Shown here in pieces: positions 19,351 to 47,272 of a stretch of 64,000 bases of DNA. The notes under the pieces were generated by a model. That model was not told where the DNA came from. It did no database searches and saw only the letters and a list, made by a program, of their open reading frames with translations. The stretch covers positions 149,340-213,339 of the forward strand of contig JAFGGS010000016.1 of the NCBI GenBank assembly GCA_016930415.1, written 5' to 3'. The stretch's first letter is position 1. Every line of letters begins with the position of its first letter. This DNA is from Candidatus Woesearchaeota archaeon (GTDB lineage: Archaea > Nanobdellota > Nanobdellia > Woesearchaeales > SM23-78). A program made the translations under genes and the position numbers.

Positions 19351-19356
19351 TTCATA

Positions 19357-21436: not shown

Positions 21437-22634
21437 CTTTTTTCACCCCGACAGATGATTTGGAGAGGTTTACCAATCCCGACAGATGAATCAAGAGGTA
21501 TAATTGGAAAGTCGAATAACAAAACGAGGCAGACATAAGACCATCAACGAAAATCACTATAAAAATAATCACCAAAAATGGTTTCAATTTACCATGCAAC
21601 CGCATAAGATCTTTTAAAAGATGGAATAGAAATTTCAACCAAATAAAAAGACCAATCAAACCCGCAGTTAGCAGTATTTCTAAGAACACATTGTGACTGT
21701 GCTTCACATAATCAGTCACAATTAATCTCGAACCTTTGAATCCGTAACCATAAACTGGACTCTTGGCAATGAAAGATAATGATGACAACCAAACTTCAGT
21801 TCTGCCTGTTAGCTCACCCAACGAATCAACAGATTCATCCCTTAGAACAAAATTTGAGATAGTATGAAGATCAGTATTTAAGGCAGACACGAATAACAAT
21901 AGCAACATCAAAACTCCAAATCCAGAAACGCCAACAGAAAATGCGCCCGCAATAATTGATTTTTTCTTCAGCAATAAGTAGAGAAAAGCCACAATAAATG
22001 CAAAATACATCGTTCTAGAATTCGTTAATATTAACCCCACAAAAGAAACAAAGGCCACGGGAAGGTATACAACTCTCTTTTCGTAAGAGAAGAACACTAT
22101 TGAAAACAAGCAAACAATTGCACAAAACATGGCCAAAAGATTCGGGTTTATGGCAAAATATCCCCCATCAAGCCTAGATGAAAAACTCAAATTTGCAAGG
22201 TTTGTTATGAGAGCGACAAAAATCAACAAGGAAAAAATGAAGTAGATAAAAACAACATTTTTCATACCATGTGAAAAATCATTGATTGAATAGAGAACAG
22301 CACCAAACAAAACAACAGCAAGAAATTCAAATATGTAGAAATAATTTACTAAAGGAAGGGCAAAAAATGTATTGACAATAATACCGATGAATGCATAAAT
22401 CCAGAAGAGATGAAATCCCATTTTAAAAGAAGTGGTAAGGAATTTTCTTGGCCTCATGATAATAAAGGACAAAGAGACCGCAAAGAGAATAAGCAAACCC
22501 ACCACATTAGGATCCGAAAATATCTGTACGAGTCCATACGACGATGGATCCCGATCTCCACTCAAAATGGATCTTCCTAGAAGTGGAACTAGAAATAAAA
22601 CAGACAAGACATAAAATTTCAAATTCTTATTCAT
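21426..22634 (-). CDS. Wzy/O-antigen-ligase-like polysaccharide polymerase (multi-TM)
   Basis: About 10 TM helices. Wzy_C-type motifs LTNSRTMYF and HNVFLEILLTAGLIGLFIW. Confidence 0.6.
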   Translation of the reverse strand: MNKNLKFYVLSVLFLVPLLGRSILSGDRDPSSYGLVQIFSDPNVVGLLILFAVSLSFIIMRPRKFLTTSFKMGFHLFWIYAFIGIIVNTFFALPLVNYFYIFEFLAVVLFGAVLYSINDFSHGMKNVVFIYFIFSLLIFVALITNLANLSFSSRLDGGYFAINPNLLAMFCAIVCLFSIVFFSYEKRVVYLPVAFVSFVGLILTNSRTMYFAFIVAFLYLLLKKKSIIAGAFSVGVSGFGVLMLLLLFVSALNTDLHTISNFVLRDESVDSLGELTGRTEVWLSSLSFIAKSPVYGYGFKGSRLIVTDYVKHSHNVFLEILLTAGLIGLFIWLKFLFHLLKDLMRLHGKLKPFLVIIFIVIFVDGLMSASFCYSTFQLYLLIHLSGLVNLSKSSVGVKKDAR

Positions 22635-23729
22635 TTTTATCAGCTACAATATGAATAAACATCTCGTTCAACTTTCTCACAGACGTATCTGTTAACTCTT
22701 GTTTTATTATTTCAATTGATCGCTTCCCACAGGAGAATAGCTTCCTTTTGTCAGCCAAAAATCTTCTAATCTTATTAGCAGAACCACCAACATCATCTGG
22801 ATTTATCACGATGCCATTCTCTTTCACTAAGTCTTCAGCACAACCCGCATATTTTGAGCAGATTACTGGAAGGCCATATGCCAAGGCTTCAGACACCACC
22901 AAACCAAAAGTATCCTGTCTAGTGAAAAAGATGAAGACACTCGCATCTTTATATATCTTATCTAGGTTTTGGGTAAATGATACAAAGGTTATGCCATCCC
23001 TCCCATTGTAGGACATCATCTCATCCACGAATTTCTTGTCAGAGTCTGGTTCTCCAACCAGCGTCAATGAGATGTTCTTAATATTCTTTCTTACCAAGAG
23101 ATATGTCTCAATGAGTTTATCGATGCCTTTTTGGCGTGAAATTCTGCCAACGTAGAGCAGGTTAATTTTCCGCGCTTCAGAATATTTTTTTTTAGATACT
23201 TTAGTAACACAAAGAGAATCAATAGTTAATAGATTCACATAGATCTTTTTTACGCCAATTGACTCGTAATATCTCCTAGTCTCACTCGAGGGAGCCCAGG
23301 CAGCCGCAGCAATTTTCGCCATGCACCTACGTATAAGCTTCTGGAAAAAGTTGCGTTTTGATTCTGATTGCCTAGTAAGCTCTCCCCATAGCACAATCTT
23401 CTTTCTAAAAAGATATGCCCAGACGAATATCTGCAGAAAAGTAAGTCCATATCCTCCACAAACTACAATGTCAGGATTGTAAGTAGATAATCTTGGGATG
23501 GCGTTCCATGAAATCCAAGACCTCTTAAACATTTTAAGAATAAGAGTGTTGAGAGTTTCATAATCAAATTTAATGGAGCTCTTATCGATCGACCAATGAC
23601 GAAAAGCACTCCCCTCCCTCTCAAAGAAAACCTTGAAGTCCACAACCTTGCTTCCCTCCAACTTATTGAAGAGACCAACCCTATAGGGCGCAATAATGTT
23701 AGTTATAAATGCGACTTTTATTTTCTTTC

Positions 23730-23745
<16 letters not shown>
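22627..23745 (-). CDS. GT4 glycosyltransferase
   Basis: LLYVGRISRQKGIDKL...FTRQDTFGLVVSEALAYGLPVICSKYAG is the GT4 signature. Confidence 0.75.
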
Positions 23746-26993
<3,248 letters not shown>

Positions 26994-27252: not shown

Positions 27253-30200
27253 TTATCTCCACTTCTTGACCGCGAAGTAGCCTATAACAAGCGCGACTAC
27301 GAGTCCCAGGGCTGCCACGAACCACAAGTAGCTTACAGAGCCAGTCTCCTGGGCTCCGATCGCCTGTCCTGTGACCGATTCAAGGCCAGAAGCCTCTGCC
27401 AGGTCCCGTGGGTCTATGCTGTTCTCAAGGCTTGAATCCTTATCCTGGGTGAGAGAACTCACCAAGTCGACGTAGGTTGAGTTGTCCTCTACCGAAGCAT
27501 TGCATGGCCTAGTCTCCTTCCTGCTCTCGTTCTCGTAGAGGCAAGTCCTGTACTCCTCGCTGTTTATGCAAATAGACCAGTCGGTGCACACCAGCTGGGT
27601 TGAACAGTCAGTCGCTGCCGAGCAGTTATCTTCGCTGGTGGAAGCGGCGCTGTATGAACTCAGGAAGCTACCGCCGCCCCCTCCTCCACCGCCGCCTGAA
27701 GACGAGACAGTGCAGGCCCCACAGTCAACTGCGCATGAAGAGCAAGTCTCGCCTGCCTCGCACACGAGGTCTCCGCAGTCAGTGACTGGAATGACGCTCA
27801 AAGTAACCATGTTCGTCTGGGCAGACCTGTTGCCGCTCGAAGCAGTGAAGTAGAGGGTCTCGAATCCGTACCAGTTAGCTGGCGCAGACACGTTCACAAG
27901 GCCATCCTCTCCAATGCCGATCACCAGGACCGATTGGTTCCTGACAACGCTGTAATTCAAGGTCGAATTGAGCGGGTCATCGAAGCAGGATGAGAGGTCG
28001 TAAGCCCCCACAAGGGAGGTGTCCTCGTTCCATGACTTGTTAGGCAGGTCGCATCCGGTTATGTTACAGTCGCAGTCAGACTCACAGCTTCCGCAATCCT
28101 CGCCGGCATCGCACACTCCGTCGCCGCAGTAAGGAAGAGCCACGCAAGTCCCCCAGCCGCACTCTGAAGTGCAGGTCCTGACACCGTCATGGCCTCCAAA
28201 GTCAACGCAGGACTGGGTCATGTTAGGCTCGCAAGACTCGTTGCCGTTCACGATGCCGTCTCCGCAGAACTCCAAGACAGTGTGTTCGCAAGTACAACCA
28301 GAGAGGCAAGTGTCGAGCGTCGATGTGTTGCTATCGTCGCAGTCAGCATCTATAACGCACTCTGCAGAGCAGTTGAGGTCGCATGAATGAGTCATCGTGT
28401 CGTTGCTCTCGCTACAAGTCCCAGTAGGTTCCTGGCACTCTGAGGTGAAAGGCGCAAGGTAGTCGAACGTGAACGGGTTGTCGTCAGGGCTGTTATCGCA
28501 GGTATTGATCCCGAAGACGTCGTAAGCAGAGCAGTCGACAGGAGTGCCAGGGGCGCAATCACCCAAGACGCAGGTCTCAAGGCCATCGCACGCCAAACCA
28601 TTATCACAGTCAGCATCGAAAGTGCAGTTCACGTCAGGACAGACTCCACAGTCAGCCTCGCAAGATGAACAGTTCTCATCCGCGCCGCAGACCCCATCAC
28701 CACAGGATGAAAGCGGCTCAAAGCTGCAAGAGCAGCCAAGGCAGGAATCAGCAGTGCTCTCGTTGCCGTCGTCGCAGTCAAGGTCCGAGACGCACGCTGC
28801 GCCGCAGATGCCGACGTCGCAGGTGTGCGTGATGTTCTCATCACCCACAGTGCACTCGCCAGAAGGCTCTTCGCACACAGAAGTGAATGCAGCCCTGTAG
28901 TCGAGCGTGAACGGATTGTCATCAGGCGAATAAGTACAGCTCTCGACATCAATTATGTCGTAAGCAGAGCAATCGACAGGAGTGCCAGGGGCGCAAGCGC
29001 CTAGGCTGCAGGTCTCAAGGCCATCGCACGCCAAACCATTATCACAGTCAGCATCGAAAGTGCAATTCACATCCGAACAGACCCCGCAATCAGTCTCACA
29101 AGACGAACAATTCTCATCGCCATTGCAGACCCCATCGCCGCAGAAAGGCAAGGCAGGGCACTCACCGCAATCCGCAGAGCAGGACGAACAATTCTCGTCA
29201 AGGTCGCAGACACCATCTCCACAGAACCATAAAGGCTCATGCAAACAGACACATCCAACACAAGCGTCGCTAGTTGAGGTCAGATTATCATCACAATCAA
29301 TGTCAGCCTCACATGTAGCAGAACAGTTTTCAATGCTACATACGTGATAGATGGTATCATCGCCGACGGTGCACTCGCCGGAAGGCTCTTCACATACAGA
29401 AGTGAATGCAGCCCTGTAATCCCACGTGAATGGATTAGTATCCTCAGGGATGTTCCTGCAGTCAGCAATCTCGAATATGTCGAAAGCGCTGCAGTCAACA
29501 TCTTCACCTGCTATGCAAGAGCCAAGATCGCAGCTCTCCAAGCCGTTGCAGGCCAAGCCGTCATCGCAATCCAAGACAACGGCGGACTCGTTCCAGACGC
29601 AAGCCCCTGCCAAGCAGACGTAATCATCATGATAGACAGAGGATCCGACGCAATAGTCATTATCGAAAGGATCGCAATCAGAGTCCTGGAAGCAAGCGCA
29701 ATCCTCATCGATAAATCCATCGCAGTCATCGTCGACCATGTTGAAGCAGGTCTCGTTCATTCCAGGGTTGACCAGGAAGGCATCATCATCGCAGTCGCCA
29801 TCCTGGGCGACATAACCAGCGGTCAAGCTGCAAGTCAGCAGCAACTCGCTGGAGTTCCCGAAGGAGTCATTGTCGAAGTCCAGGAACAACGACAAGAGCA
29901 GGCCTTCATCCACGAGCCCGTTGCAGTCATTATCCAATCCATCACAGAGAGTCTCGTTGGACTCGTAGGATGAGACATTCGAATAATCATCAGTCCAGTT
30001 CCCTGCAATGCATGATTGGGTGCTATTCACACAGACCCCGAGCTGCAGGAAGTTGAAAGGCGCAACCTCGCCAGAGCCATCAAGAGTGAGGTCAGAGCAA
30101 TCATTATCTACGCCATCGCAAGTCTCGGTGGCGTTTGGATTGATAAGATAATCCAGATCATTACAGTCCACAGGGCCGCAGAGATCGCCATCAGGAGAGA

Positions 30201-32151
30201 AACCATCCTCATCAAGATCAGAGCAAGCATGCTCGGCATCCGCAGCAGTCGTGAAACTGAAACTCTTCTCAGTATAGAGCCCATCGCCTCGCTCACGGAC
30301 AACGACGTGCCAGAAATAAGTTGTATTAGACTCGTTCATATCGACTGGATTCGCATAAAAAACCCCGTTAGAAACGTTCTCATAATAGGCAATGACCCTC
30401 CAGACACCGGAAGCATTAGAGCTGAACTCCACATCGATAGGATCATGGCGATAATCGACAGCACGGACAGCCAAAGGAGGATTCAAAGAGACATTAACCC
30501 CTGAATCCGAAGGAGAAGCATCATAGATGAAAGCCTGAGGCGCGCCAGGAGGCGGGACGTAGACGCCAGCACCAAGGCGACGTTCACTATAAAACTGGAC
30601 ATTTGTTCTAGGAAGAATCTCAGGACTATAAGCTGAAGTCTCAAATAACTGGACTGTACCACCACTCCCAATAACAACCAATTCATTCTGGCCATCAGAA
30701 TCAATATCCTGAACAATCATAGTCCCTATACTGCCCGCAGAAGTCAGATTTTCAATCTGATTATAAGAACTATTATACACCCTCACAGGACCATAACCAC
30801 CCACAATCTCCAATCTAGAATCCCCAATCACATCAAGCATCTTTGGAGGTTCGGCAAAGTAATCTAAAGTCGCATCCAAGCTCCAAGAGTCAAGGTCCCA
30901 CACCTTAGCCACACCATAATCATTAGAGATAAGCTCGACATGTCCATCAAGATCAATATCGCCAAGAGGAAAAGGTGAATGGCCACTCACAGGAATTGAG
31001 TTAGACCATTTTCCCGGGATTTTTTCACCAGTTAATCCATTCACAGTATAAATACCACGACCTAATTCTTGAACTACAGTAACATCCAAGACATTATCAC
31101 CAGTCAAATCTAAGAGTGCGCCCATATGGCTACTGCAGAGCACATCATCAACATACCATAGAAGAGATAGGTTATCAGCATCATAAGCTTGTATTCCTTT
31201 TCCAAGACTTGATCCTACAGTAGGATAATCATAAGAACGATCAGTCATAAAAATCTCAAAATCTCCATCAGAATCAATATCTGCGGCTGAAAGCCCTCCC
31301 CAACAAGGCCTCCAAGCAAAAGCCTCTGCCAAAACAGCACCATTAGATCCATTGATTTTTCTTAACCTCCCAGTCCCATTTTCTCCTTGAGTAATATCGG
31401 AAGTCGCAGTATAGACATAAGGATAATTATTTCCATCCACATCGACAATAACCAAGTATTTATCTGCGGATTCAACAGGAACGTCCCAAAATATAGAACC
31501 ATCTTCAGCATTCAAGGCAACTGTTCTAGATCCAGAAGCCACAACCACCTCCAAAGTCCCATCGTTATCAAGATCAGCAATTTCAAAAGGTGAATGATAT
31601 GAAAGGCGATAATTATTATATATCCATCTTACTTGGCCTGTTAAGCCATCAATACAAGTCAGCTTATCATTTCCAGATACAAAAATCTCGTAAATCCCAT
31701 CATTATCAACATCTGCCGCTAAAGGTCCAATCGCGGTATTTGTGTTAGTTCGATACTGCCAGCTCAGTACAAAAGGTTTGGCTGTGAAATAAAATGTTTC
31801 AGTTTTCCAATCAACACCATCAAATAGTTTTATTCGCCAAAAATAAGTTTCACCTTGCTCTCCAAAAGAGATATTCTTCGTGTGAGTGCTATAGAATCCG
31901 GATGAGCCTGAAAAAGAAGTAATCTCCTCCCAAGATCCAGAGATATTAGTTTCAAATGTTACCAACAGAGTCCTGTTAAGGGAATCCTCTATATTCGCAG
32001 ACAATCTGGGATGATAAGTGGCGGTTTCATTTGCAGGATACGCTCCAGATATCATTATTTCCGAATCTGCCAACACCGAAGGAATTTGAATTAAACAGAA
32101 GAATAGTATCATGAATAGAACAAATCTCCTCTGCAAATTATGAAAATACAT
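27253..32151 (-). CDS. Giant (1632 aa) secreted surface protein: FG-GAP/beta-propeller repeats, MopE-like metal-binding motifs, three tandem ~146-aa Cys-rich repeats, and a C-terminal anchoring cassette
   Basis: Signal peptide. FG-GAP-like DxDxDG repeats (DLDNDGTLEV, DIDSDGDFEI). CDGVDNDCS and CDGLDNDCNGLVDE motifs. Repeated CGDGVCxxxENCSSCxxDCGVC modules. A G9 tract. CTDWSICINSEEYRTC, then a C-terminal TM (YLWFVAALGLVVALVIGYFAV) plus KKWR. Confidence 0.85.
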   Translation of the reverse strand: MYFHNLQRRFVLFMILFFCLIQIPSVLADSEIMISGAYPANETATYHPRLSANIEDSLNRTLLVTFETNISGSWEEITSFSGSSGFYSTHTKNISFGEQGETYFWRIKLFDGVDWKTETFYFTAKPFVLSWQYRTNTNTAIGPLAADVDNDGIYEIFVSGNDKLTCIDGLTGQVRWIYNNYRLSYHSPFEIADLDNDGTLEVVVASGSRTVALNAEDGSIFWDVPVESADKYLVIVDVDGNNYPYVYTATSDITQGENGTGRLRKINGSNGAVLAEAFAWRPCWGGLSAADIDSDGDFEIFMTDRSYDYPTVGSSLGKGIQAYDADNLSLLWYVDDVLCSSHMGALLDLTGDNVLDVTVVQELGRGIYTVNGLTGEKIPGKWSNSIPVSGHSPFPLGDIDLDGHVELISNDYGVAKVWDLDSWSLDATLDYFAEPPKMLDVIGDSRLEIVGGYGPVRVYNSSYNQIENLTSAGSIGTMIVQDIDSDGQNELVVIGSGGTVQLFETSAYSPEILPRTNVQFYSERRLGAGVYVPPPGAPQAFIYDASPSDSGVNVSLNPPLAVRAVDYRHDPIDVEFSSNASGVWRVIAYYENVSNGVFYANPVDMNESNTTYFWHVVVRERGDGLYTEKSFSFTTAADAEHACSDLDEDGFSPDGDLCGPVDCNDLDYLINPNATETCDGVDNDCSDLTLDGSGEVAPFNFLQLGVCVNSTQSCIAGNWTDDYSNVSSYESNETLCDGLDNDCNGLVDEGLLLSLFLDFDNDSFGNSSELLLTCSLTAGYVAQDGDCDDDAFLVNPGMNETCFNMVDDDCDGFIDEDCACFQDSDCDPFDNDYCVGSSVYHDDYVCLAGACVWNESAVVLDCDDGLACNGLESCDLGSCIAGEDVDCSAFDIFEIADCRNIPEDTNPFTWDYRAAFTSVCEEPSGECTVGDDTIYHVCSIENCSATCEADIDCDDNLTSTSDACVGCVCLHEPLWFCGDGVCDLDENCSSCSADCGECPALPFCGDGVCNGDENCSSCETDCGVCSDVNCTFDADCDNGLACDGLETCSLGACAPGTPVDCSAYDIIDVESCTYSPDDNPFTLDYRAAFTSVCEEPSGECTVGDENITHTCDVGICGAACVSDLDCDDGNESTADSCLGCSCSFEPLSSCGDGVCGADENCSSCEADCGVCPDVNCTFDADCDNGLACDGLETCVLGDCAPGTPVDCSAYDVFGINTCDNSPDDNPFTFDYLAPFTSECQEPTGTCSESNDTMTHSCDLNCSAECVIDADCDDSNTSTLDTCLSGCTCEHTVLEFCGDGIVNGNESCEPNMTQSCVDFGGHDGVRTCTSECGWGTCVALPYCGDGVCDAGEDCGSCESDCDCNITGCDLPNKSWNEDTSLVGAYDLSSCFDDPLNSTLNYSVVRNQSVLVIGIGEDGLVNVSAPANWYGFETLYFTASSGNRSAQTNMVTLSVIPVTDCGDLVCEAGETCSSCAVDCGACTVSSSGGGGGGGGGSFLSSYSAASTSEDNCSAATDCSTQLVCTDWSICINSEEYRTCLYENESRKETRPCNASVEDNSTYVDLVSSLTQDKDSSLENSIDPRDLAEASGLESVTGQAIGAQETGSVSYLWFVAALGLVVALVIGYFAVKKWR
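28380..29560. repeat. Tandem DNA repeats (period 438 bp, at least 3 copies, two nearly identical) inside the giant gene
   Basis: Equivalent antisense mini-ORFs at 28544 and 28982 (MPGAQSPKTQVSRPSHAKPLSQSASKVQFTS... vs MPGAQAPRLQVSRPSHAKPLSQSASKVQFTS...) show 438-bp periodicity. Long identical stretches, for example gccatcgcacgccaaaccattatcacagtcagcatcgaaagtgca. Confidence 0.6.
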
Positions 32152-32270
32152 GTTTCTTCCCTTGAGTTGCTATCTTGTCACGACGAAACACACCTCTCTT
32201 TTTAAAACTTTCCATAGTCACCACTAACCGAGAGCAAAGATATTAATCCAAGTCGAAGTCTTGATTCAAA

Positions 32271-34961
32271 TTACAAACCAGATTTCTTCGGTTTATAAAA
32301 GGTAAAGAACATAAACAGCACTATGAAAAAACAAGCCATTGCTCCCGAAATCAAAGTATATTTCTGACTTCCCAATTGCACTCCAGTAATCTGTGTTGGA
32401 GATTCAACTACAGGCTCTCGAATAAGCTCTTCAGTCAAGGCAGTCAGATTATCATCAAGTTCCTGTAACGCCGCAGTCTCAGTAATAGACTGGTTTTCAT
32501 CAAATGAAGCTTTCGAGCCTCCAGAGGATTCGGAACTAGAAGAGACGGCAGTTACAATCTCTTGGAATCCAGATTCTTGAGATGCTTGTGTTCCTTCAGG
32601 CTCGCAAGTCCTAGAATTTGTCTTGGATGCAAATCTAGCATTATGTTCACATTCTTGCGTCTGCTTATAGTTCACACACTCACCCCATTCTCCGCAAGTC
32701 CAATCAGCATCAGTCGTGGCGGCTACGCCTCCACCGCCGCCTCCTCCAGACGAGCAGGAGCCACAGTCAATAGAGCAACTAGAGCAAGTCTCCCCAGACT
32801 CACAGGCGTCATCCCCACAGTCAGCAACGCTCAAAACAGTCAAAGTAACTAAGTTAGTAGAACTATTCCGACTAGTATTTGAAGCATCAACAGCAGTGAA
32901 ATAGACAGTTTCAACGCCGTGCCAGTTGGCTGGGGCTGAGAGGTTAACAAGGCCGTCAGAACCGATTAAAACCCTAATTGAGCTGTTTCCAGCCACGCTA
33001 AAGCCTAAAGTCTGGTTCAGTGAGTCATTGAAGCAGCCAGAGAGGTTGTAAGCTCCATTTAAGGCAGCATCCTCATTCCAAGTCTTTACACTTAGAGTAC
33101 AGACTGATATATCATTCTCTGTTACAAGACATACGCCGCAGTCAGCGGCACACATAGAGCAGTTTTCAACCCCGTTGCATGAAGCATCACCACAGTATTG
33201 AGAGGCAGTTATCTGTAAAGAAGATGAATTCAAAGCCAATCCAAATCCTACACCATCATAAGGAGAAATTTGACAAATCCAGAAATCGCCTAGAGATAAG
33301 TTTCCGGAGTTGATACTAGATTCATTCAAACCAGACATTAAAGAACCATCCTTAAACCAAGAATAATAATTTATGACAGAATCATCATCTAAATCTAATG
33401 TAGATTGGTTATAACAATTCAAAACAGCATTTGTCGTGTTCTGAGGATAGTCAGAAGCATTCAACACAGGAGTTGAGTGTGTCGGAAGAACATTAGGAGG
33501 AAGTTCGCAAGGGACAGCACCTACATAAGAGCCAGTTGAAGATATATTACAAGCTGGACTAGTATATAGAGGAGTTAAATTCCCGGCAGAAATATCAGCC
33601 AACAAGGGATCTGATACAACTCCATTAACCTCAAACCCAGTAGCTGAACTCAGAGAGTAGAGCGAATCATAATCAGTTGAACCATTACGTACCAAATAAG
33701 AACCAGAGCTCGAATACAGATTGAAATCTATTTCAGGATATTGGCCAAACCAAGTTCCTTCTGCAATCTGTAACTCCCTGAAATAAGAATTGACAAGAAT
33801 ATTGTTCTTAACCACAATTCCCGAAGTAAAAGATGGAGCCCTCGTCAATTTTATATTCCTGCCATAAGTACTCAGTCTCTGGTTAAAGCTCCAACCCCGA
33901 CCCGCATTAATAAGAGTATTCTGATTAAAAGATATATTAGAGACAACAGATGAAGACACAGTACTAAAAAACTCGATGTTATTCTCAGAGAAGGAAATCT
34001 GATTTCCATACACCTCAATATCAGAAATTACTGTTTGGCCAGCGTCTAACCAAGACTCAACAGCGACACCAGAATCATAACACTGAGAAATAGTATTATT
34101 TATGATAAAAATCATGCTGTTATTCGTGGCAATATCAACACAATTTCCATATCGAAGCGTTCCAGATTGATAAGCACCACCGATATAAGATAAAGCGCCA
34201 TTCTGAAAGACGATGTTATTGGAGTTTCTTAATTCTAGACCCATCTGACCCCCATATCTCAAATCCAAATTCTCAAAGAAAACATATCTTTTACTCCATA
34301 GTTTAATAATATCAACATTTTTTGCCGCTTCTATATCTGAATAATAATTTGCTGGATTAGAAACACTGTATAGAAACACTTTCTGAGAAGAAGAATTGAC
34401 CCAGAAGTCTCCTTGAGACGCAAGAGATCCAAAAGAATCTACTTTAGTTCCCACCGAGGATTCGTCATTAAAAATTAAATTACCCACATCAGCATTAAAA
34501 TCCAAATCATACTCCCAGATATTTAAGCCCATTGAAGACCAAATGGACCCATTATTCATTTCGTAACTTCCTAAAAACAACGGACGATTGCCAGAACCAT
34601 AAGAACCATAGTAGATATACCCTGAATCAGATCCGCTTTTTGCGTCAAGGTAAGCATCCTCAGCAAAACGCCAAGATTCTCCTCTTTTAAATAGAACTGA
34701 ATCCCCAGGCTGAAGATTCAATCCATTGACTTTTGAAATTGATTGGAAAGGTTCTAAAACAGAAGTTCCTAAATTTGAATCATTACCGCTCGTCGCATCA
34801 ACATAATAAACCGTGCCAAAACCCCAAGTAACAAAACCCGTCGGATTCTCTGTGGGAGACAGCAAAAGCAGCATGGAAGAAAGGAATATAAAAACAACTA
34901 TTACGAATGAAAACCTCACTATTAAATTCCATCTCTTTATCAAATCACGAAGTTCTTTCAT
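32271..34961 (-). CDS. Large (896 aa) secreted right-handed beta-helix (pectate-lyase-fold-like) surface protein with C-terminal anchoring cassette
   Basis: Signal anchor. Repetitive N/G/S-rich beta-helix-like rungs (NNIVFQNGALSYIGGAY, NNSMIFIINNTISQCYDSG). CGDASCNGVENCSMCAADCGVC and CGDDACESGETCSSCSIDCGSC modules. A G7 tract. DWTCGEWGECVNYKQTQEC, then a C-terminal TM plus KPKKSGL. Confidence 0.8.
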   Translation of the reverse strand: MKELRDLIKRWNLIVRFSFVIVVFIFLSSMLLLLSPTENPTGFVTWGFGTVYYVDATSGNDSNLGTSVLEPFQSISKVNGLNLQPGDSVLFKRGESWRFAEDAYLDAKSGSDSGYIYYGSYGSGNRPLFLGSYEMNNGSIWSSMGLNIWEYDLDFNADVGNLIFNDESSVGTKVDSFGSLASQGDFWVNSSSQKVFLYSVSNPANYYSDIEAAKNVDIIKLWSKRYVFFENLDLRYGGQMGLELRNSNNIVFQNGALSYIGGAYQSGTLRYGNCVDIATNNSMIFIINNTISQCYDSGVAVESWLDAGQTVISDIEVYGNQISFSENNIEFFSTVSSSVVSNISFNQNTLINAGRGWSFNQRLSTYGRNIKLTRAPSFTSGIVVKNNILVNSYFRELQIAEGTWFGQYPEIDFNLYSSSGSYLVRNGSTDYDSLYSLSSATGFEVNGVVSDPLLADISAGNLTPLYTSPACNISSTGSYVGAVPCELPPNVLPTHSTPVLNASDYPQNTTNAVLNCYNQSTLDLDDDSVINYYSWFKDGSLMSGLNESSINSGNLSLGDFWICQISPYDGVGFGLALNSSSLQITASQYCGDASCNGVENCSMCAADCGVCLVTENDISVCTLSVKTWNEDAALNGAYNLSGCFNDSLNQTLGFSVAGNSSIRVLIGSDGLVNLSAPANWHGVETVYFTAVDASNTSRNSSTNLVTLTVLSVADCGDDACESGETCSSCSIDCGSCSSGGGGGGGVAATTDADWTCGEWGECVNYKQTQECEHNARFASKTNSRTCEPEGTQASQESGFQEIVTAVSSSSESSGGSKASFDENQSITETAALQELDDNLTALTEELIREPVVESPTQITGVQLGSQKYTLISGAMACFFIVLFMFFTFYKPKKSGL

Positions 34962-35469
34962 TTTTCTCCAATTTTAATTTTCCATGCTTGTAGGAGATCC
35001 ACAACGTGCTATATGCACGGTTTAATGTTATAGATAATTCATGAAAAGACATGTTCAACACATCACGAGCATAAATTGTCAAGGTTTCAAGAGGAGATAA
35101 CGACCGATTAGAGAAGATAACACCAGGAACAAACATACCACTCTCATCCAGTTTAAATTCGGAAGAGTACTTCCGCACCGCATTCTTATATGAAGTCCAA
35201 ATAGTACGATCATCCCTACCAAGGAATTTAGCAATTTTGCAGTAATCCAAAGCATAGTTCTCTTTTAGTGTCTTCACCACCACTTCTAACACACCAAGAT
35301 TAGAATTTGAGAATAAACTAAGCGGCAGTCTTAAATACTCTTCCCGTTTCATTACATCTTTATATAATTTAAGGAAATCTTCTAAAACATTGATAAAATT
35401 CACACCCTCAGCAGATGCATGCCTAGATAACCAATTATTTTCACCTAACATATCCAAACCAGCACTCAT
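34945..35469 (-). CDS. Hypothetical protein with two helix-turn-helix-like segments; possible regulator co-transcribed with the beta-helix surface protein
   Basis: 174 aa. HTH-like stretches ALDYCKIAKFLGRDDRTIWTSYKNA and SFHELSITLNRAYSTLWISYKHG. Overlaps the downstream gene start by 17 nt. Confidence 0.45.
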   Translation of the reverse strand: MSAGLDMLGENNWLSRHASAEGVNFINVLEDFLKLYKDVMKREEYLRLPLSLFSNSNLGVLEVVVKTLKENYALDYCKIAKFLGRDDRTIWTSYKNAVRKYSSEFKLDESGMFVPGVIFSNRSLSPLETLTIYARDVLNMSFHELSITLNRAYSTLWISYKHGKLKLEKNERTS

Positions 35470-35669
35470 TAAAAGATATCATTTAACTCAAAGTTATATA
35501 AATATATCGATTTTTACCTATTAAAAATGATAAAATACTTAAATAATAAGTATGATGATATAAAAAAATAAGAAAAATCAAAAAGAAGAAAATCCAATCA
35601 AGAGCACTAAAAGGAAGATTTATAAAGACATGATTTTTCCTTATCGCTCGGTAGTAAATAGAGGATCTA

Positions 35670-36938
35670 ATGGAATATAAACGAGTCCTAAAAGATGGAA
35701 TGCACTTTAGCTTAGGAAAAGTAGGCACAATACTAATAAGCCTGATAAACACAATCATACTGGCAAGATTGTTAACAACCACACAAATGGGTCAATATTC
35801 TCTTTTCCTTATGATAGTAAACTTAGCAGTAGTCATCACATTCACATGGTCAGATAATGCAATAATAAGACATGGAAGAGAAGAATACACCACCTCTAAA
35901 GAGATTAACAAATCATTCTGGGCGAGAAACGTAATCATAGGCCCCGCAACAGCACTCATAACCACAGCCATAATTATTTTCAGAAAAGATATTGCTCAGT
36001 ACATTGGAATGAAAGAAGAAATAATCATATTTATCTTGATCTTATTTATTATTCAAGGAATATTTAATTATATCAACTCAATATTTCAAGGCACAAATCA
36101 GATGCAAAAATCAGCATATCTGCTTCTCTTCCAAAAAGCAATCTATCTTGTAACCATACTAGCATTAATGACTGGATTTTTCCAGATTGACAATCTTTAT
36201 GCCGCAATAATATTTCTTAACTTAAGCTTCATTATAGTCACAGCAATACAACTAATTCAATTCCGATATCATCAGATACTTCCCGCGAAATACAGTAAAC
36301 AGCATCTAAAGAAAATATGGTCATATTCTTGGCCTCACATAATAGGATTTCCAGGAATATACGTGATTAATTATATTGATTTATTTGTCATAAGACAATT
36401 CATGGATCTTGAAGCAGTAGGCACATACAATATTGCATATTTAGGATTTACTAATATATGCACCTCAATAATGCTCATCAACACAGTTATGTTTCCATTG
36501 CTAGTAGAATATAAAACAAAGAAGAATTATGAGGCAATAAGAAAATACCTCTCACACATACCAAAATACACATTCATCTGGATTATTCTTACAATAATAG
36601 GACTGTTCTTATCACCTCATGTGATTCCAGCATTATTCTCAACACAATATGTGAGTTCAATCCCATCGTTTAATATCTTGTTGATAGCTAGCATCGTCTA
36701 TTTCATATATGTGTGCTTAATACCCCTCGTCAACACATTTGACCTAATCATATATTCTCAGACATTCAATGTGATAAAAGCAGGCATCAACATCGGATTG
36801 GATTTCATATTAATACCAAAGATGGGAATTATTGGAGCAGCCTATGGAACTCTGGTTTCATATGCAGTGGGCACGATGCTAATAATCCTGTTACTCATAT
36901 ACAAAAGAAAATTGTTTTTACATACCAAAGAACAATGA
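35670..36938 (+). CDS. Wzx-like oligosaccharide flippase (MOP superfamily)
   Basis: 422 aa with about 12 TM. N-terminus GKVGTILISLINTIILARLLTTTQMGQYSLFL is typical of polysaccharide flippases. Very AT-rich coding sequence. Confidence 0.65.
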   Translation: MEYKRVLKDGMHFSLGKVGTILISLINTIILARLLTTTQMGQYSLFLMIVNLAVVITFTWSDNAIIRHGREEYTTSKEINKSFWARNVIIGPATALITTAIIIFRKDIAQYIGMKEEIIIFILILFIIQGIFNYINSIFQGTNQMQKSAYLLLFQKAIYLVTILALMTGFFQIDNLYAAIIFLNLSFIIVTAIQLIQFRYHQILPAKYSKQHLKKIWSYSWPHIIGFPGIYVINYIDLFVIRQFMDLEAVGTYNIAYLGFTNICTSIMLINTVMFPLLVEYKTKKNYEAIRKYLSHIPKYTFIWIILTIIGLFLSPHVIPALFSTQYVSSIPSFNILLIASIVYFIYVCLIPLVNTFDLIIYSQTFNVIKAGINIGLDFILIPKMGIIGAAYGTLVSYAVGTMLIILLLIYKRKLFLHTKEQ

Positions 36939-38101
36939 AAAACACCATAATACTAGGAATAGAACGTTTCCCTCCAGATTTTACCGGATCAGGATTGAGA
37001 GCATATAGACAAAGCTTAAGGATTCAGAGTAAATACGGCTATAAATTTATCATATTAACTAATAAAAGCAAACAAAAAGAGATAACTAAGGATCTGGAGA
37101 TAATCAGAATCCCTACGATAACACCAAAAATACTTTTACCAATATATCTTATTGAATTATTCATAAGAATTAATTTGATAATGCAGAAAAGGAAAGATGA
37201 TATTAGCCTCATCCACATGTTCTCACTATACTGGTTAAATAGAATGTTAATGTTATCCAACATATTATTCTATAAAAAACCAAGCATACTAGAAGTCACC
37301 TTAGATGGAGACGATGATCCAGTCTCTTTAATAAAAAACAGCCCTCTAGGTAAAATTATAAGCAACCCACTAAAAGCGCTCATGAAAAAAATAGGACTTT
37401 TCATTGTTCAAACCAAAAATAGCAAGAGATCGTGCGAACAAATAGGAATTTCCCAAAAAAAAATATGGCAAAGACCAAATCCAATAGATGAAAAAGTCTT
37501 TGGGAAGATACCATTCAGCAAAATAGAATGCATTAAGAAGAGACTCACACTCCCAAAAGGTATTAATTTAGTGAATATAGGGGCTATTTCCAAAAGAAAA
37601 AATCAGCTTCTATTAGCAAAAGTACTCAAGCAAGTCCAATATCAAGATGTAAACCTACTCTTAATTGGCCCAAAATCAGATAAAAAATATTACAATATTA
37701 TACAAAAACAAATCAAAGAATCAAAACTTGAAAACAGAATTGTCTTTATGGGTGAAAAAACAAACACCCAAGAATACCTCTTAGCAGCAGATATTTTTGT
37801 ATTCTCTTCTGAACGAGAAGGATTTGGAAATGTTTTCGGAGAAGCAATGATATCAGGTCTGCCAATAATAACAACTTATCTGGATGGAATCAGCAAGTTC
37901 ATCAATATTAATAACGGAATTATCATAACAGAAAAGAACGAAGAAGATAAAATAAGAAGATTCGCAAGTGAAATTGACAAAATCATAAGAAAGAAGACCA
38001 CATATAATCGACAAATAATAAGAAATATGGGCATTAAATATTTTTCTGCTAAGAATATAGATCTGCAGTATCATGAAAAATACAATCGGCTGATAAAATG
38101 A
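36935..38101 (+). CDS. GT4 glycosyltransferase
   Basis: LVNIGAISKRKNQLLLAKVLK...FVFSSEREGFGNVFGEAMISGLPIITT has the GT4 EX7E region. Its start overlaps the Wzx stop (ATGA). Confidence 0.75.
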   Translation: MKNTIILGIERFPPDFTGSGLRAYRQSLRIQSKYGYKFIILTNKSKQKEITKDLEIIRIPTITPKILLPIYLIELFIRINLIMQKRKDDISLIHMFSLYWLNRMLMLSNILFYKKPSILEVTLDGDDDPVSLIKNSPLGKIISNPLKALMKKIGLFIVQTKNSKRSCEQIGISQKKIWQRPNPIDEKVFGKIPFSKIECIKKRLTLPKGINLVNIGAISKRKNQLLLAKVLKQVQYQDVNLLLIGPKSDKKYYNIIQKQIKESKLENRIVFMGEKTNTQEYLLAADIFVFSSEREGFGNVFGEAMISGLPIITTYLDGISKFININNGIIITEKNEEDKIRRFASEIDKIIRKKTTYNRQIIRNMGIKYFSAKNIDLQYHEKYNRLIK

Positions 38102-39372
38102 GAAAAATAGAGAATTTAGAGATTTTCCTGTACCTAATAATATTGACAATTCTTACTACAATAATTAGAGTTACAGCAGGAGACTATAAAACATTTACTG
38201 GAAGCCCACTAAGTCACAGCCTATTTTTATTAATAATAAGTACACTATTCATTTTCTTCTTCTTCAAGAAGTATGATTACTTCATTTTAGTATGGTCCTC
38301 AGTTTATTTTGCGGCCCCAATAATAAAAGTACCGGGAACAGAGGTTGGAAGTCTCGGAATACTTAACTTAATATTCCTTCCACTGATGATTTGGAAGATA
38401 TTTGATCTTAAAGACAAAAGATTTTATCTCATACCTGCAATAATATTGCTTTCATTAATCAATTTGGCAGATGTTCCCGCCAGACTAATCATATCGGGAA
38501 TATTCAATTCCTCTGCATTACCAGTATTTCTCCTTTTTGTAGTGAAAAAGTGTAAAAACCCAGAACTACTAATAAAAGGAAGTATATTTATAGCAATAAT
38601 AAATCTTCCACTAACATTTTACGAATATACATCATTGCCCGATTGGGGAGTAATGATTGATTGGAGAGGAATTAGAGTACAAGGGAATCTATTTCATCCA
38701 AATGGATATACACTATTCCTTCTGCCAGTAATTTTACTGACATATGCAAAACTAAGAGAGCGACTGCAGATAAGCACAACAGTCATATTCATAGTTTTTT
38801 TAGTGGCCGACCTATTAACAAGGTCAAGAATTGGACTTATTACGTTAGTTGCCACAATAGGACTGTTTGAGATAATTCACGAAGATAGAAAACACAACCG
38901 AATAAAAAAGATCCTCATTGCGTTTGCAATTGCCGCGACAATAATTATTTTTTTGCAAATAAGAGAGGAACAGAGCAGAATATCTCCTGAGGCCATGGAA
39001 GATAGAACAAAAATCTGGGAGCCAATAATCCCATATATCAAATCCAACCTCCTAATTGGAAATGGTGTGGGCAGCTATGAAGAGCACATGGAAAGCGAGT
39101 TTCATGGTCTCGGACCTCACAATTTATATCTGGGAATATTATTTGAATTCGGAATTATAGGATTAACTCTAATACTACTTTTTGTATGGTCAGTACTTAA
39201 AGAGTTCTTCAAGATGAAAAACTCGGTTTGGCGCACCACAGGAATGGCACTCATAATTGGCATCCTAATTTATTCCATAACAGAATCTAACGCTTTCAAT
39301 CAAGTGTTTGCATTAAACACGTGGATTCTTTTAGGCGCACTGCTATTAATAAAAAAAATGAAAAGAAAATGA
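38098..39372 (+). CDS. Wzy/O-antigen-ligase-like polymerase (multi-TM)
   Basis: About 10-11 TM. Wzy_C-type motif HGLGPHNLYLGILFEFGIIGLTLILLF. Confidence 0.6.
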   Translation: MRKIENLEIFLYLIILTILTTIIRVTAGDYKTFTGSPLSHSLFLLIISTLFIFFFFKKYDYFILVWSSVYFAAPIIKVPGTEVGSLGILNLIFLPLMIWKIFDLKDKRFYLIPAIILLSLINLADVPARLIISGIFNSSALPVFLLFVVKKCKNPELLIKGSIFIAIINLPLTFYEYTSLPDWGVMIDWRGIRVQGNLFHPNGYTLFLLPVILLTYAKLRERLQISTTVIFIVFLVADLLTRSRIGLITLVATIGLFEIIHEDRKHNRIKKILIAFAIAATIIIFLQIREEQSRISPEAMEDRTKIWEPIIPYIKSNLLIGNGVGSYEEHMESEFHGLGPHNLYLGILFEFGIIGLTLILLFVWSVLKEFFKMKNSVWRTTGMALIIGILIYSITESNAFNQVFALNTWILLGALLLIKKMKRK

Positions 39373-40700
39373 AACAAATTATAAGAATCATAGAAGAAAT
39401 AGCGTTAAACCTATTCTTCCTATTAGAAAATGATTTCAGGATGATCTATTTCTACCAATACTGTAGAAACCTGAGAAAAAATAGAGATGAAATAAAACAA
39501 CTACAAGATAAAAAACTCAAGAAGCTGATTGAACACGCATACAGTACTTGTCCATATTACAAAAAAGCATTTGATGATGCAAAAATATCACCAAAATGCA
39601 TAAATTCATCCGAAGATCTGAAGAAAATTCCAAACATCACAAAAGCCGATGTCAACAAGAATAAAAAACAAATGATAAGTCAGAAGTATAATATCAGAAA
39701 ACTAACAAAAGATTTCTCAGGAGGAACAACCGGAGAAGGGGTACAATTTTATAAGGATAAGAGATACATGCAGAAAGCTCGCGCAGTCTGGATGAGAGAC
39801 ATATATGCTCATGGATATAGGCCTGGAGATAAGATGGCTTGGATTTGGGGATCTGAAAGAGAAACCAAAGATTCATCAAAAATAATGAAAAGAATAAGAA
39901 GGATATTAACACGTAAAATTTGGTTCAACCCCACGAATTTTGAAGAGGAAACATTTTACCAATGGATAATTGAAGAATATAATATGTTTAAGCCAAAATT
40001 CATCTACGGATATGAAAACGCAATCTTATCAATGGCAAGATTGATTGAGAAGAGAGGCATAAAAATCCATAAACCCCAGAAGGTTTTTAGTACCTCTGAG
40101 AGCCTGAATAATAGAGATTACCTTGAAAAAGTATTTGGATGTGAAGTAATAGATCAATACGGCTGTCGTGAAGTTCTGGCCTTAGCAATAGAAGATAAAA
40201 ATAAAATAATGCGCTCAGACGATGATTTTGTAATAATTGAAGTTAATGAAAAGAATGAGATTCTACTAACACCTTTGGAAGCATATGGAATGCCACTCAT
40301 ACGATATCGAGTTGGAGATCTTGGAATTAGAAAAAAAAGTCAAAAATCTAACAAACACCCATTCAACAGTTTTGACCTTACACTAGCACGAACATTTGAG
40401 ATGTTTAAAACATCAAATAACACAACCATATACAGTGGAGAGATAATTCATCAAGCAAGCAAGAAAAAAGTGGATGTGGGAGAGTATCAACTAGTGCAAA
40501 ACTCAACAAATCTAATAACAATTAATATCATCGGGAAGAAGAAAGATGTAAAACCAGAAGAAATAGATAAACTTAAGAAAGTTATAACTAAGTTATCAGG
40601 AATAATAGATGTGCGAGTCAAATTTCTCAACAAGAGACTCATCGCCAAGAGCGGAAAGATAATAGCAGCAAAGTGCTTAATAGAATCAAGAGAAAAATGA
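39369..40700 (+). CDS. CapK-like adenylate-forming enzyme (phenylacetate-CoA ligase family), paralog of 15067-16347
   Basis: DFSGGTTGEGVQFYKDKRY and VFGCEVIDQYGCREVLALAIEDKNKIMRSDDDFVIIEV are about 65% identical to VFGCQVIDQYGATEIPAIAIEDKNYVMHSSDDFVIVEV in the other copy. The start is at the internal ATG (39369), overlapping the Wzy stop. Confidence 0.7.
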   Translation: MKQIIRIIEEIALNLFFLLENDFRMIYFYQYCRNLRKNRDEIKQLQDKKLKKLIEHAYSTCPYYKKAFDDAKISPKCINSSEDLKKIPNITKADVNKNKKQMISQKYNIRKLTKDFSGGTTGEGVQFYKDKRYMQKARAVWMRDIYAHGYRPGDKMAWIWGSERETKDSSKIMKRIRRILTRKIWFNPTNFEEETFYQWIIEEYNMFKPKFIYGYENAILSMARLIEKRGIKIHKPQKVFSTSESLNNRDYLEKVFGCEVIDQYGCREVLALAIEDKNKIMRSDDDFVIIEVNEKNEILLTPLEAYGMPLIRYRVGDLGIRKKSQKSNKHPFNSFDLTLARTFEMFKTSNNTTIYSGEIIHQASKKKVDVGEYQLVQNSTNLITINIIGKKKDVKPEEIDKLKKVITKLSGIIDVRVKFLNKRLIAKSGKIIAAKCLIESREK

Positions 40701-42921: not shown

Positions 42922-42925
42922 AGAG

Positions 42926-44044: not shown

Positions 44045-44050
44045 TTAATA

Positions 44051-46407: not shown

Positions 46408-46707
46408 AAAGGCATGATTTAGGCCGACAACCAGCAGCTAGCGTCAATAGCTCTTTTCTCAGCGATTCAAGCACAACTTTAAGAAAACCGGATTTTCTGG
46501 CAAGTCAAGGCGCAAAGACAGCCCTAAATCCACTATCCGGCCGGAAAAGCCACTCGAAAACCCGGAAAAACCAGTTCCCTATCTCGGAGTGGTAAAAAAG
46601 GGAAACCTTTATAAATGACCTGGCCATCCTCATACCCATATAAAGCTTAAATGGAAGAATCCAAGAACGGATTCCATCCATAGCACAAAATATTGGGGGA
46701 TTGGAAA

Positions 46708-47181: not shown

Positions 47182-47272
47182 ATTATTTGATATTTTATAT
47201 TCGTGGCGTCAAAGAGAAAATAATATAAGCTCAAATTATAATTACCATTTCAAAAAGGAGGAGAGAAGCAAA

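Follow-up and report, generated by a model that had tools for sequence, protein, structure and literature searches.

A recurrent C-terminal cassette in DPANN surface proteins, probably a portable stalk-and-anchor module

In a 64,000-nucleotide stretch of a Candidatus Woesearchaeota genome (contig JAFGGS010000016.1; 'the window' hereafter means this whole stretch), three large predicted surface proteins, called here P1, P2 and P3, end with the same ordered elements: a short unit with six cysteines (6-Cys), a poly-Gly run, a small domain with the signature W-C-W-C (the mini-domain), a disordered acidic/Ser-Thr spacer, an (I/V)TGxxxG motif (the ITG motif), a transmembrane (TM) helix and a basic tail. 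Our analysis suggests that this cassette is probably a portable module that serves as stalk and anchor next to the membrane in type I (N-out, C-in) surface glycoproteins of DPANN archaea. Two further proteins of the window, P4 and P5, have C-termini that are only partly comparable. All five proteins have signal-peptide-like N-termini in translation, and the proteins of the window are identical to GenBank entries with locus tags in the series JW826_044xx-045xx.

27253-32151, minus strand: P1, MBN1792905.1, 'putative metal-binding motif-containing protein' in GenBank
32271-34961, minus strand: P2, MBN1792906.1, 'hypothetical protein'
50115-53609, minus strand: P3, MBN1792921.1, 'hypothetical protein'
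13089-15050, plus strand: P4 (M14 peptidase), MBN1792894.1, 'hypothetical'
5736-10700, minus strand: P5, MBN1792889.1, 'PGF-pre-PGF domain-containing protein'

The cassette in P1, P2 and P3

The elements were detected by a regular-expression scan of all six frames of the window, together with the translations, and sit in the frames of the named genes only. The 6-Cys expression CG[DN]..C...E.C..C..DC..C has ten matches in the window, with five copies in P1, two in P2, one in P3 and one in P4. Gly runs of at least five residues are restricted to P1-P5, and WxCxxWxxC is found in P2, P3 and, in degenerate form, P1. The positions of the elements are as follows (AF2, AlphaFold2; pLDDT, predicted local distance difference test; aa, amino acids).

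50586-50651, minus strand: P3 6-Cys module CGDQVCNNGETCASCPADCGTC (regular expression; AF2 pLDDT ~75), an optional N-terminal element of the cassette
50544-50573, minus strand: P3 poly-Gly hinge GGGGGGSGGG (mixed GGN codons; pLDDT ~49, flexible)
50430-50525, minus strand: P3 W-C-W-C mini-domain NWECGDWSTCINGEEHRTCSLNGVSKEEKQAC, with four Cys and two Trp (regular expression; AF2 core pLDDT ~94)
50238-50429, minus strand: P3 acidic/Ser-Thr spacer, a predicted disordered stalk (translation; pLDDT ~50)
50217-50237, minus strand: P3 ITGFSVG juxtamembrane motif (regular expression, logo and control window)
50133-50186, minus strand: P3 TM helix LFWLFVLVALAIAGYASF (AF2 helix 159-179, pLDDT >95)
50118-50186, minus strand: P3 TM helix plus basic tail RVFRK
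32754-32819, minus strand: P2 6-Cys module nearest the membrane; the other copy is at 33129-33194, and an immunoglobulin (Ig)-like domain (weak Big_9 match in Pfam) separates the two
32727-32747, minus strand: P2 poly-Gly G7 (regular expression; mixed codons)
32604-32705, minus strand: P2 W-C-W-C mini-domain DWTCGEWGECVNYKQTQECEHNARFASKTNSRTC (regular expression)
32370-32390, minus strand: P2 ITGVQLG
32295-32360, minus strand: P2 TM helix, followed by the basic tail KPKKSGL (whole tail 32274-32390)
27712-27777, minus strand: last P1 6-Cys module; four further copies lie upstream, at 28066-29223
27670-27696, minus strand: P1 poly-Gly G9 (regular expression; mixed codons)
27502-27630, minus strand: P1 variant mini-domain ...LVCTDWSICINSEEYRTC...RPC (alignments), in which the first Trp is lost and a 20-aa insert adds two Cys
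27355-27375, minus strand: P1 VTGQAIG
27268-27330, minus strand: P1 TM helix, followed by the basic tail KKWR (whole tail 27256-27375)

An alignment of the C-termini of P1-P3 runs from the 6-Cys module to the stop codon; every Cys, the second Trp and the T-G are invariant in it. The cassettes of P2 and P3 are 39% identical (BLASTP, E 1e-7) and a cassette profile matches independent database proteins down to E 1e-20, so that the similarity has statistical support. The initial annotation had assigned the ordered cassette to P1-P3 and, in rearranged order, to P4; this holds for P1-P3, and P4 has a rearranged set that lacks the W-C-W-C domain. The loose motif it had noticed before the TM helix is real, but the P1 segment proposed for it, ETGSVSYLWF, was misaligned, the homologous element being VTGQAIG.

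The P1 gene itself deserves a remark. The GenBank model has 1331 aa and the open reading frame (ORF; 27253-32151, minus strand) 1632 aa; the full-length ORF opens with a signal-peptide-like N-terminus followed by a FG-GAP propeller, and the deposited model is probably truncated at its 5' end.

Spread and portability

A profile running from the poly-Gly to the C-terminus, from which the 6-Cys module was left out on purpose, was built from P1-P3 and one metagenomic relative and searched against 1.84 billion cluster representatives (clusters at 50% identity). It matched 437 clusters at E<=1e-3, of which 39 at E<=1e-10, with lengths from 133 to 2180 aa; detailed counts were made on the best 149 of these 437 matches. 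WxCxxWxxC is present in 145 of the 149 and a Gly run of at least four residues in 106. In 117 of them a single (or double) mini-domain is followed by a TM helix, with a basic cluster after it in 107 of the 117; the median spacer length among homologues is 90 aa. No Pfam family is universal among 52 full-length members, whose passenger domains include MopE motifs, FG-GAP, DUF4215, TSP_3, CARDB, fn3, LamG_3 and beta-helix, as well as DUF2341, ice-binding, subtilase, archaeal S-layer, PKD and disintegrin domains. The cassette is thus a shuffled module and is not limited to the paralogs of the window, a restriction that the initial annotation had envisaged as the failure of its idea; the portable C-terminal module that it proposed is instead borne out by the number of clusters, the variety of passengers and the presence in several DPANN phyla. 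One existing model, NF045500 ('Omp28-related selenoprotein'), matches 6 of the 52 full-length homologues and leaves proteins with tandem mini-domains unmatched; it therefore marks a passenger domain and not the cassette.

To obtain a sample not selected for poly-Gly, ITG motif or TM helix, GTDB representative genomes were scanned at the DNA level for the canonical mini-domain and nothing else (W.C..W..C..G.QTR.C); by our own estimate from the information content of the pattern, about 0.1 chance match is expected. The scan yielded at least 120 loci, and all its counts given here are among the matches listed. By record title, 73 of the 120 listed loci come from named DPANN groups. The loci are distributed as follows.

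Woesearchaeota: 32 loci
Nanoarchaeota/Nanobdellota: 17 loci
Pacearchaeota: 9 loci
Aenigmatarchaeota: 8 loci
Iainarchaeota/Diapherotrites: 4 loci
Micrarchaeota: 2 loci
Nanohaloarchaea: 1 locus
Records titled 'archaeon': 16 loci
Third-party-annotation (TPA) metagenome-assembled genomes (MAGs) titled Methanosarcinales or Gammaproteobacteria: 20 loci, labels not trusted
Candidate phyla radiation (CPR)/Patescibacteria: 10 loci
Streptococcus: 1 locus, probably a chance match

The TPA records are 'binchicken' MAGs (e.g., L011, L015, L018, L048; L005, L017, L064), whose titles, 'uncultured Methanosarcinales archaeon' or 'uncultured Gammaproteobacteria bacterium', look like placeholders or misassignments.

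In this sample, a TM helix lies downstream of the mini-domain in 76 of the 88 archaeal ORFs (median distance 75 aa) and in none of the nine CPR ORFs. The mini-domain is thus overwhelmingly a feature of DPANN archaea, a few CPR bacteria having it without the helix. A poly-Gly precedes the mini-domain in 27 of 101 ORFs, 26 of which have the TM helix. The ITG motif is found in 13 of the 26 poly-Gly TM proteins versus 11 of the 50 others (24 of 76 in total). The succession of mini-domain, spacer and TM helix is therefore the general DPANN rule, and the poly-Gly and the ITG motif are frequent and mutually associated additions.

The mini-domain and the predicted order of the cassette

The consensus of the mini-domain, drawn from 224 instances, is [C-x3]-W-x-C-x2-W-S-x-C-x-N-G-x-Q-T-R-x-C-x5-6-(C)-x8-12-C, in which W, C, W, C, C and C are invariant in 56-64 homologues. 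It comes in two flavours, one with four Cys (the type of the window) and one with five to six Cys, the latter also in arrays of three to nine copies. Tandem mini-domains were seen in seven proteins (P0009, P0022, P0026, P0043, P0087, P0100, P0117) and two loci (L026, L027). The mini-domain has no match in Pfam (2025) or NCBIfam (2026), even at E<=10 or in the tandem-array proteins.

Structure prediction, which the initial annotation had suggested for both Cys-containing elements, gives a confident core for the mini-domain (pLDDT ~94; AF2, 64 homologues), in which an irregular strand with Trp packs against a beta-hairpin, and a pLDDT of ~75 for the 6-Cys module. In a Foldseek search against the PDB, the 53-aa model of the mini-domain retrieved nothing significant, and its profile has no match among PDB sequences at E<=10. 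The candidate comparator is the thrombospondin type 1 repeat (TSR; also properdin and midkine/pleiotrophin domains), whose hallmark is a three-stranded fold with a Trp/Arg ladder. A comparison by hhalign with six TSRs, whose sequences are to be taken as approximate, gave P=0.0013 with a reported probability of only 18% over 14 columns, the aligned segment being the core WSxC...G.Q.R of the mini-domain. A TSR-like fold is a lead and not an established assignment.

The AF2 model of the whole P3 cassette (71 homologues) alternates order and disorder: the 6-Cys module (~75), the poly-Gly (~49), the mini-domain (~94), the spacer and ITG region (~50) and a 21-residue TM helix with a pLDDT above 95. 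All five proteins use a mixture of GGN codons for the poly-Gly, which indicates that the run is maintained at the protein level and rules out a slippage-prone DNA repeat.

The juxtamembrane motif is strongly conserved. The logo of 94 instances reads [N/S/G]-x-I(64)/V(16)/L(12)-T(84)/S(10)-G(94)-A(39)-V/A-I/V-G(47), with the consensus ITGAVVG. The motif lies no more than 30 aa from the TM helix in 94 of 117 proteins, versus 7 of 117 in a control window 30-64 aa upstream, and its median distance to the helix is 13 aa. The ITG tail is matched by no Pfam or NCBIfam model. On ten representative tails, no curated CTERM sorting-domain model reached its cut-off, and weak LPXTG_anchor, Loki-CTERM and Heimdall-CTERM scores came from the TM-plus-basic part only; this agrees with the view of the initial annotation that the cassette is distinct from PGF-CTERM and PEF-CTERM.

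A proposed stalk-and-anchor model

From this architecture, we infer uncleaved retention in the membrane, glycosylation, disulfide bonds and a hinge function. In the proposed model, an N-terminal signal peptide would send the passenger out, and the single C-terminal TM helix, with a basic cluster that follows the positive-inside rule, would stop transfer and hold the protein in the cytoplasmic membrane. The acidic/Ser-Thr segment of 60-110 aa would form a disordered and probably glycosylated stalk, topped by the W-C-W-C domain as a small, presumably disulfide-stabilised three-stranded knob, possibly related to TSRs. The poly-Gly would be a flexible joint between stalk and passenger. The 6-Cys module may be an optional small disulfide knot, used elsewhere in the same proteins as an inter-domain spacer. 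ITGAVVG, ~13 aa before the TM helix, is a conserved juxtamembrane element. Domain shuffling would have spread the module onto varied passengers, and the neighbouring archaeosortase would not serve the cassette, its predicted substrates being VPEF-CTERM proteins (see below).

Several points weigh against this model. Glycosylation and disulfide bonds are read from the sequence only. The homologue counts are skewed toward poly-Gly and ITG, both of which were part of the search profile. The conservation of ITGAVVG (94 of 117 versus 7 of 117) demands a function beyond that of a plain anchor, and cleavage at or near the ITG motif is possible. Finally, the succession of motif, TM helix and basic cluster is tripartite, like true sorting signals, and the tail after the helix has at most 12 aa in 70 of the 117 members.

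In a first alternative, ITGAVVG-TM-basic would be a new DPANN C-terminal sorting signal, cut by a membrane enzyme and possibly coupled to lipid or cell-wall attachment, as with sortases, archaeosortases, rhombosortases and myxosortases. The position at the extreme C-terminus in those 70 proteins, the fixed distance between ITG and TM helix, the lack of a known CTERM model covering the tail and the presence of several carriers per region (three to four in the window, two adjacent ones in L126), which fits a pattern of many substrates for one enzyme, all speak for it. However, tails longer than 12 aa are found in 33 of the 94 ITG proteins, some with a conserved domain, which is unexpected if this part is removed. 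Furthermore, a polar linker of ~6-10 aa separates ITG and TM helix, the motif is present in only 24 of the 76 TM-anchored mini-domain proteins of the genome sample, AF2 gives it no defined structure, and neither the window nor related loci revealed a candidate enzyme, no search having been aimed at sortases. Since many ITG-bearing members keep long conserved cytoplasmic tails, routine removal of the TM helix is disfavoured, and we consider this alternative unlikely. The initial annotation had spoken of an 'anchoring or sorting' module; the sorting half fares poorly, because tails above 12 aa in 47 of 117 members, some with a conserved domain, are atypical of cleaved signals. A bolder scenario, which we regard as quite unlikely, would make ITGAVVG-TM-basic a DPANN-wide sorting or shedding signal for a membrane enzyme, with the poly-Gly and W-C-W-C elements passing the passenger through the S-layer or docking it there and thereby displaying host-interaction domains outside.

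Cytoplasmic tails, P4 and P5

The cytoplasmic tails themselves are of two kinds. Most members have just 3-12 basic residues past the TM helix (tails of at most 12 aa in 70 of the 117), and the other 47 have longer tails, some of them with a conserved domain. The ITG motif occurs with both kinds, in 61 of the 70 short-tailed and 33 of the 47 long-tailed proteins. P4 is of the long-tailed kind, and P5 has an ending of its own.

14451-15047, plus strand: P4 C-terminus, with poly-Gly, 6-Cys, spacer, LITGRIID, TM helix and a 77-aa cytoplasmic tail containing the ...AGWPEHLIIHAL motif
5736-6617, minus strand: P5 C-terminus, with poly-Gly G9, PGF-pre-PGF domain, TM helix and His-rich cytoplasmic tail

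The initial annotation had given P4 a short basic tail, which the 77-aa tail corrects; neither its translation nor the six-frame expression contains a W-C-W-C domain. The motif ..L...GW....I..A. is common to the tails of P4, P0014, P0015, P0029, P0041, P0050 and P0061. This GW-motif cytoplasmic mini-domain spans 14817-15047 in P4, and similar tails were observed in L015, L066, L080, L082, L087, L110 and L121. The TM helix is thus a true bitopic anchor in the GW-tail subset, since the cytoplasmic tails are long and conserved there. As a separate observation, the C-terminal 96 aa of P0078 and the tail of an ORF in L059 resemble winged-helix DNA-binding domains, by eye only, which hints at membrane-tethered regulators.

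For the long-tailed subset, one could imagine that the cassette is the outer and juxtamembrane part of transmembrane signalling proteins, with the ITG motif as a shedding site and the cytoplasmic domain released or signalling. The shared GW motif and the winged-helix-like tails would fit such a role; on the other hand, most members end with just 3-12 basic residues and the passengers are adhesin- or enzyme-like, so that we find it improbable.

In P5, the poly-Gly, TM helix and His-rich tail described in the initial annotation were recovered, with in addition a PGF-pre-PGF domain (TIGR04213, 84.8 bits) right after the poly-Gly. After a plain TM helix, the last 70 aa form a cytoplasmic tail that includes a His-rich run (HHADHRHHEHHSHHESHGHEHH) and is possibly metal-binding; despite the PGF-pre-PGF domain, it has no PGF-CTERM or PGF motif. 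P5 shares only the hinge and anchor logic with the cassette.

The archaeosortase and its probable VPEF partners

The window also encodes an enzyme to which the initial annotation had connected the cassette.

44051-45082, plus strand: ArtC-like gene of the exosortase/archaeosortase family (PF09721; TIGR04178 at 55.9 bits versus a cut-off of 23)
46693-47181, plus strand: small secreted protein ending with AVPEF-SMLTLGAAVVVSLLGVLYL-RKQ; homologous VPEF tails in L003, L126, L127 and L128
42926-48115 in the window, 2939-8834 in L003, 8851-17539 in L126, 8905-13896 in L127, 8899-15627 in L128: GT4-archaeosortase-Wzz module

The NCBI name of the product, MBN1792915.1, is 'exosortase/archaeosortase family protein'; it scores 49.7 bits with the ArtC equivalog TIGR03762, below the cut-off of 100. 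The catalytic residues Cys221 (PCSGI), Arg268 and His289 are invariant between this protein and a 45%-identical homologue. At E<=1e-10, 64 relatives of the enzyme were retrieved, and every one with an organism name comes from Woesearchaeota; a search of metagenome contigs returned only the contig already known. We compared the window with four related loci, whose enzymes are 45-66% identical (L003, L126, L127 and L128). The gene order is kept in all five: a GT4 gene (DUF1972), the archaeosortase, a sugar transferase (Bac_transf), one or several small proteins, and Wzz. In all five loci, small proteins end with (G)VPE[FY]-TM-[RK][RK]x, and L127 has eight such tails. The tails look PEF-CTERM-like by eye and reach only 12-15.4 bits with TIGR03024 (cut-off 23). 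The 162-aa ORF 46693-47181, with the C-terminal sequence AVPEFSMLTLGAAVVVSLLGVLYLRKQ, is absent with this start from a collection of 15 billion proteins; the GenBank record may lack it or give it a different start. According to the passage of PMC5244752 that cites Haft et al. (2012), ArtC recognises PEF-CTERM. Given this, and the adjacency in five of five loci, it is parsimonious to pair the archaeosortase with the VPEF tails, and ORF 46693-47181 is likely its cognate substrate. Since both tails and enzyme fall below the PEF-CTERM and ArtC cut-offs, the GT4/ArtC-like/VPEF module looks like an uncurated archaeosortase/sorting-signal pair in a DPANN lineage.

That the cassette proteins are the substrates of this archaeosortase is, by comparison, very improbable. 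The enzyme has its catalytic Cys, Arg and His, and cassette proteins lie within 10 kb of it in three of the five loci (P3 in the window, P0008 in L003 and two in L126), but L127 and L128 have none within that distance, and none of the 120 listed mini-domain loci (each up to 8 kb) contains an archaeosortase homologue. In addition, no PEF/PGF/PEP-type motif borders the TM helix in the cassette tails, the small VPEF gene right after the archaeosortase/sugar-transferase pair offers the enzyme its own neighbours in every locus, and the named relatives of the enzyme are confined to Woesearchaeota, whereas the cassette is also found in Nanoarchaeota, Aenigmatarchaeota, Pacearchaeota and other DPANN archaea. 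The archaeosortase is context, outside the cassette system. One VPEF protein of L003 carries the Cys-rich passenger module of P3, so that the same passengers can be mounted on either anchor type.

The 6-Cys module and shared passenger blocks

The initial annotation had placed the 6-Cys module as a fixed part of the cassette, which it is not: only ~20 of the 150 best profile matches carry the strict unit. Among these, 18 distinct clusters (223-1347 aa) have 6-Cys, poly-Gly and mini-domain in the order of the window, with 17-25 aa between the last Cys and the first Trp, and the full cassette including 6-Cys is therefore a recurrent sub-type. The module is not specific for the C-terminus either, as shown by the five copies in P1 and two in P2, and it forms tandem arrays in P0002 and P0003 (eight copies in P0003). 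It is an optional, independently repeated spacer. A search with a tandem 6-Cys query gave no candidates, and its wider distribution as given here relies on P0002, P0003 and the regular-expression counts. The DUF4215/Myxococcus cysteine-rich repeat (TIGR02232, PF13948) resembles it in its CG[DN]G start, an acidic residue before a Cys and a D-C-x-x-C end; the 22-aa unit CGDGxCxxxExCxxCxxDCGxC differs in being shorter and in having two additional Cys. At E<=10, neither PF13948 nor TIGR02232 matches the isolated unit, a three-copy segment of P1 or the eight-copy P0003. DUF4215-like units (YCGDGTVQPPETCE...) co-occur in the 6-Cys proteins.

The passengers, described as unrelated in the initial annotation, are partly related within the window, though not all of them: P1 and P3 have a Cys-rich repeat array in common (BLASTP, E 4e-21), and P1 and P2 a 6-Cys/Ig-like/6-Cys block (54% identity, E 2e-40). 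Duplication or exchange has therefore occurred locally to some extent. As the sole source of the shared C-termini, however, recent duplication in this genome is hardly credible and is refuted by the 437 clusters at 50% identity, the 18 clusters with exact order and 17-25 aa spacing, and the diversity of passengers across several DPANN phyla.

The Cys-rich repeat (~120-250 aa, ...CDN.PD..F.TWDY...FTSVCDE...C...H.CD...C.A.C..D.DCDD...) matches no Pfam family. It is carried by P3 (50700-52700), P1 (28200-29600), the P3-like P0008 and the small VPEF-CTERM protein of L003 (7248-7901).

Genomic setting

P1-P5 are interspersed with two polysaccharide-biosynthesis clusters (15067-26993 and 35670-48115), and the window also encodes a split RpoB, Cbf5 and an exosome subunit, which mark it as archaeal. 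The GC content is 0.33-0.39 at 16000-24000 and 32000-40000, versus ~0.50 elsewhere in the window. The low-GC stretches correspond to the glycosyltransferase/flippase/Wzy parts of both glycan clusters plus P2, which suggests exchangeable glycan islands; P2 lies in a low-GC part, yet its C-terminal block is 54% identical to that of P1.

Directly upstream of P3, on the same strand and 14 bp from its start codon, a gene (53623-54897, minus strand) encodes a 424-aa secreted protein with no match in Pfam or NCBIfam; it may be co-transcribed with P3. A conserved ~170-aa protein with two helix-turn-helix (HTH)-like half-repeats, without match in Pfam and NCBIfam, is encoded in the window (34945-35469, minus strand) and in L127 (877-1371, minus strand), in both loci immediately upstream of and overlapping a large surface-protein gene and divergent from a flippase gene; it could possibly be a dedicated regulator. 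Two F390-synthetase/CapK-like adenylate-forming enzymes and a radical SAM/SPASM protein are encoded inside the polysaccharide clusters (39321-40700, 15067-16347, 41944-42921), and such genes are present again in L127 and L128; their products may modify the glycan or a peptide.

Significance and comparison with known systems

The large surface proteins of DPANN archaea, which live attached to other cells, are prime candidates for host contact, and nearly all of them carry the annotation 'hypothetical'. The ~40-aa Trp/Cys domain, the poly-Gly hinge and ITGAVVG together provide a sequence handle for listing the displayed surface proteome of uncultivated DPANN archaea, and two new families for Pfam/NCBIfam curation. 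Woesearchaeota appear to run a separate ArtC-like/VPEF-CTERM system, encoded within a polysaccharide locus. Should the ITG motif prove to be a processing site, it would represent a new member of the small set of prokaryotic C-terminal sorting systems. A literature search found no published description of the cassette.

The cassette resembles the PGF-CTERM/ArtA and PEF-CTERM/ArtC systems (Haft et al., 2012, as cited in PMC5244752) in being C-terminal, in its reuse on unrelated surface proteins, in its succession of motif, TM helix and basic cluster, and in the Ser/Thr-rich, probably glycosylated linker that precedes it. Unlike these signals, it has no P-[GE]-F abutting the TM helix, its ITG motif stands ~13 aa upstream and many cytoplasmic tails are long; the archaeosortase of this genome has separate predicted VPEF substrates. 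P1-P3 thus share with PEF-CTERM proteins the TM helix and the basic C-terminal cluster (KKWR, KPKKSGL, RVFRK) and not the PEF motif. TIGR03024 (PEF-CTERM) has no match on the cassette tails, nor does a search with TIGR04126 (PGF-CTERM) and NCBIfam give one on the tails of P1-P3 and P5.

A likeness to LPXTG/sortase signals lies in the '...TG' motif with, some residues further on, a TM helix and a basic tail. TIGR01167 (LPXTG) scores weakly, at 13-15.6 bits, on the TM helix and basic cluster of the cassette tails, with matches that start at profile position 5-11, past the LPXTG motif itself. Unlike in LPXTG, only I/V/L-T-G is conserved in the logo; the two positions before it vary, and L-P is absent.

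Haloarchaeal S-layer glycoproteins have a Thr-rich O-glycosylated stalk and a C-terminal anchor, which is a PGF-CTERM, processed by ArtA and lipid-modified. The cassette has in common with them a disordered segment rich in hydroxy amino acids between ectodomain and anchor, presumably a spacer; it differs in that its anchor is apparently a plain TM helix and in having an extra folded knob and a poly-Gly hinge. The mini-domain and the ITG tail are new to Pfam and NCBIfam; on present evidence they entail no new mechanism, a reused C-terminal stalk and membrane anchor being, as a kind, well known.

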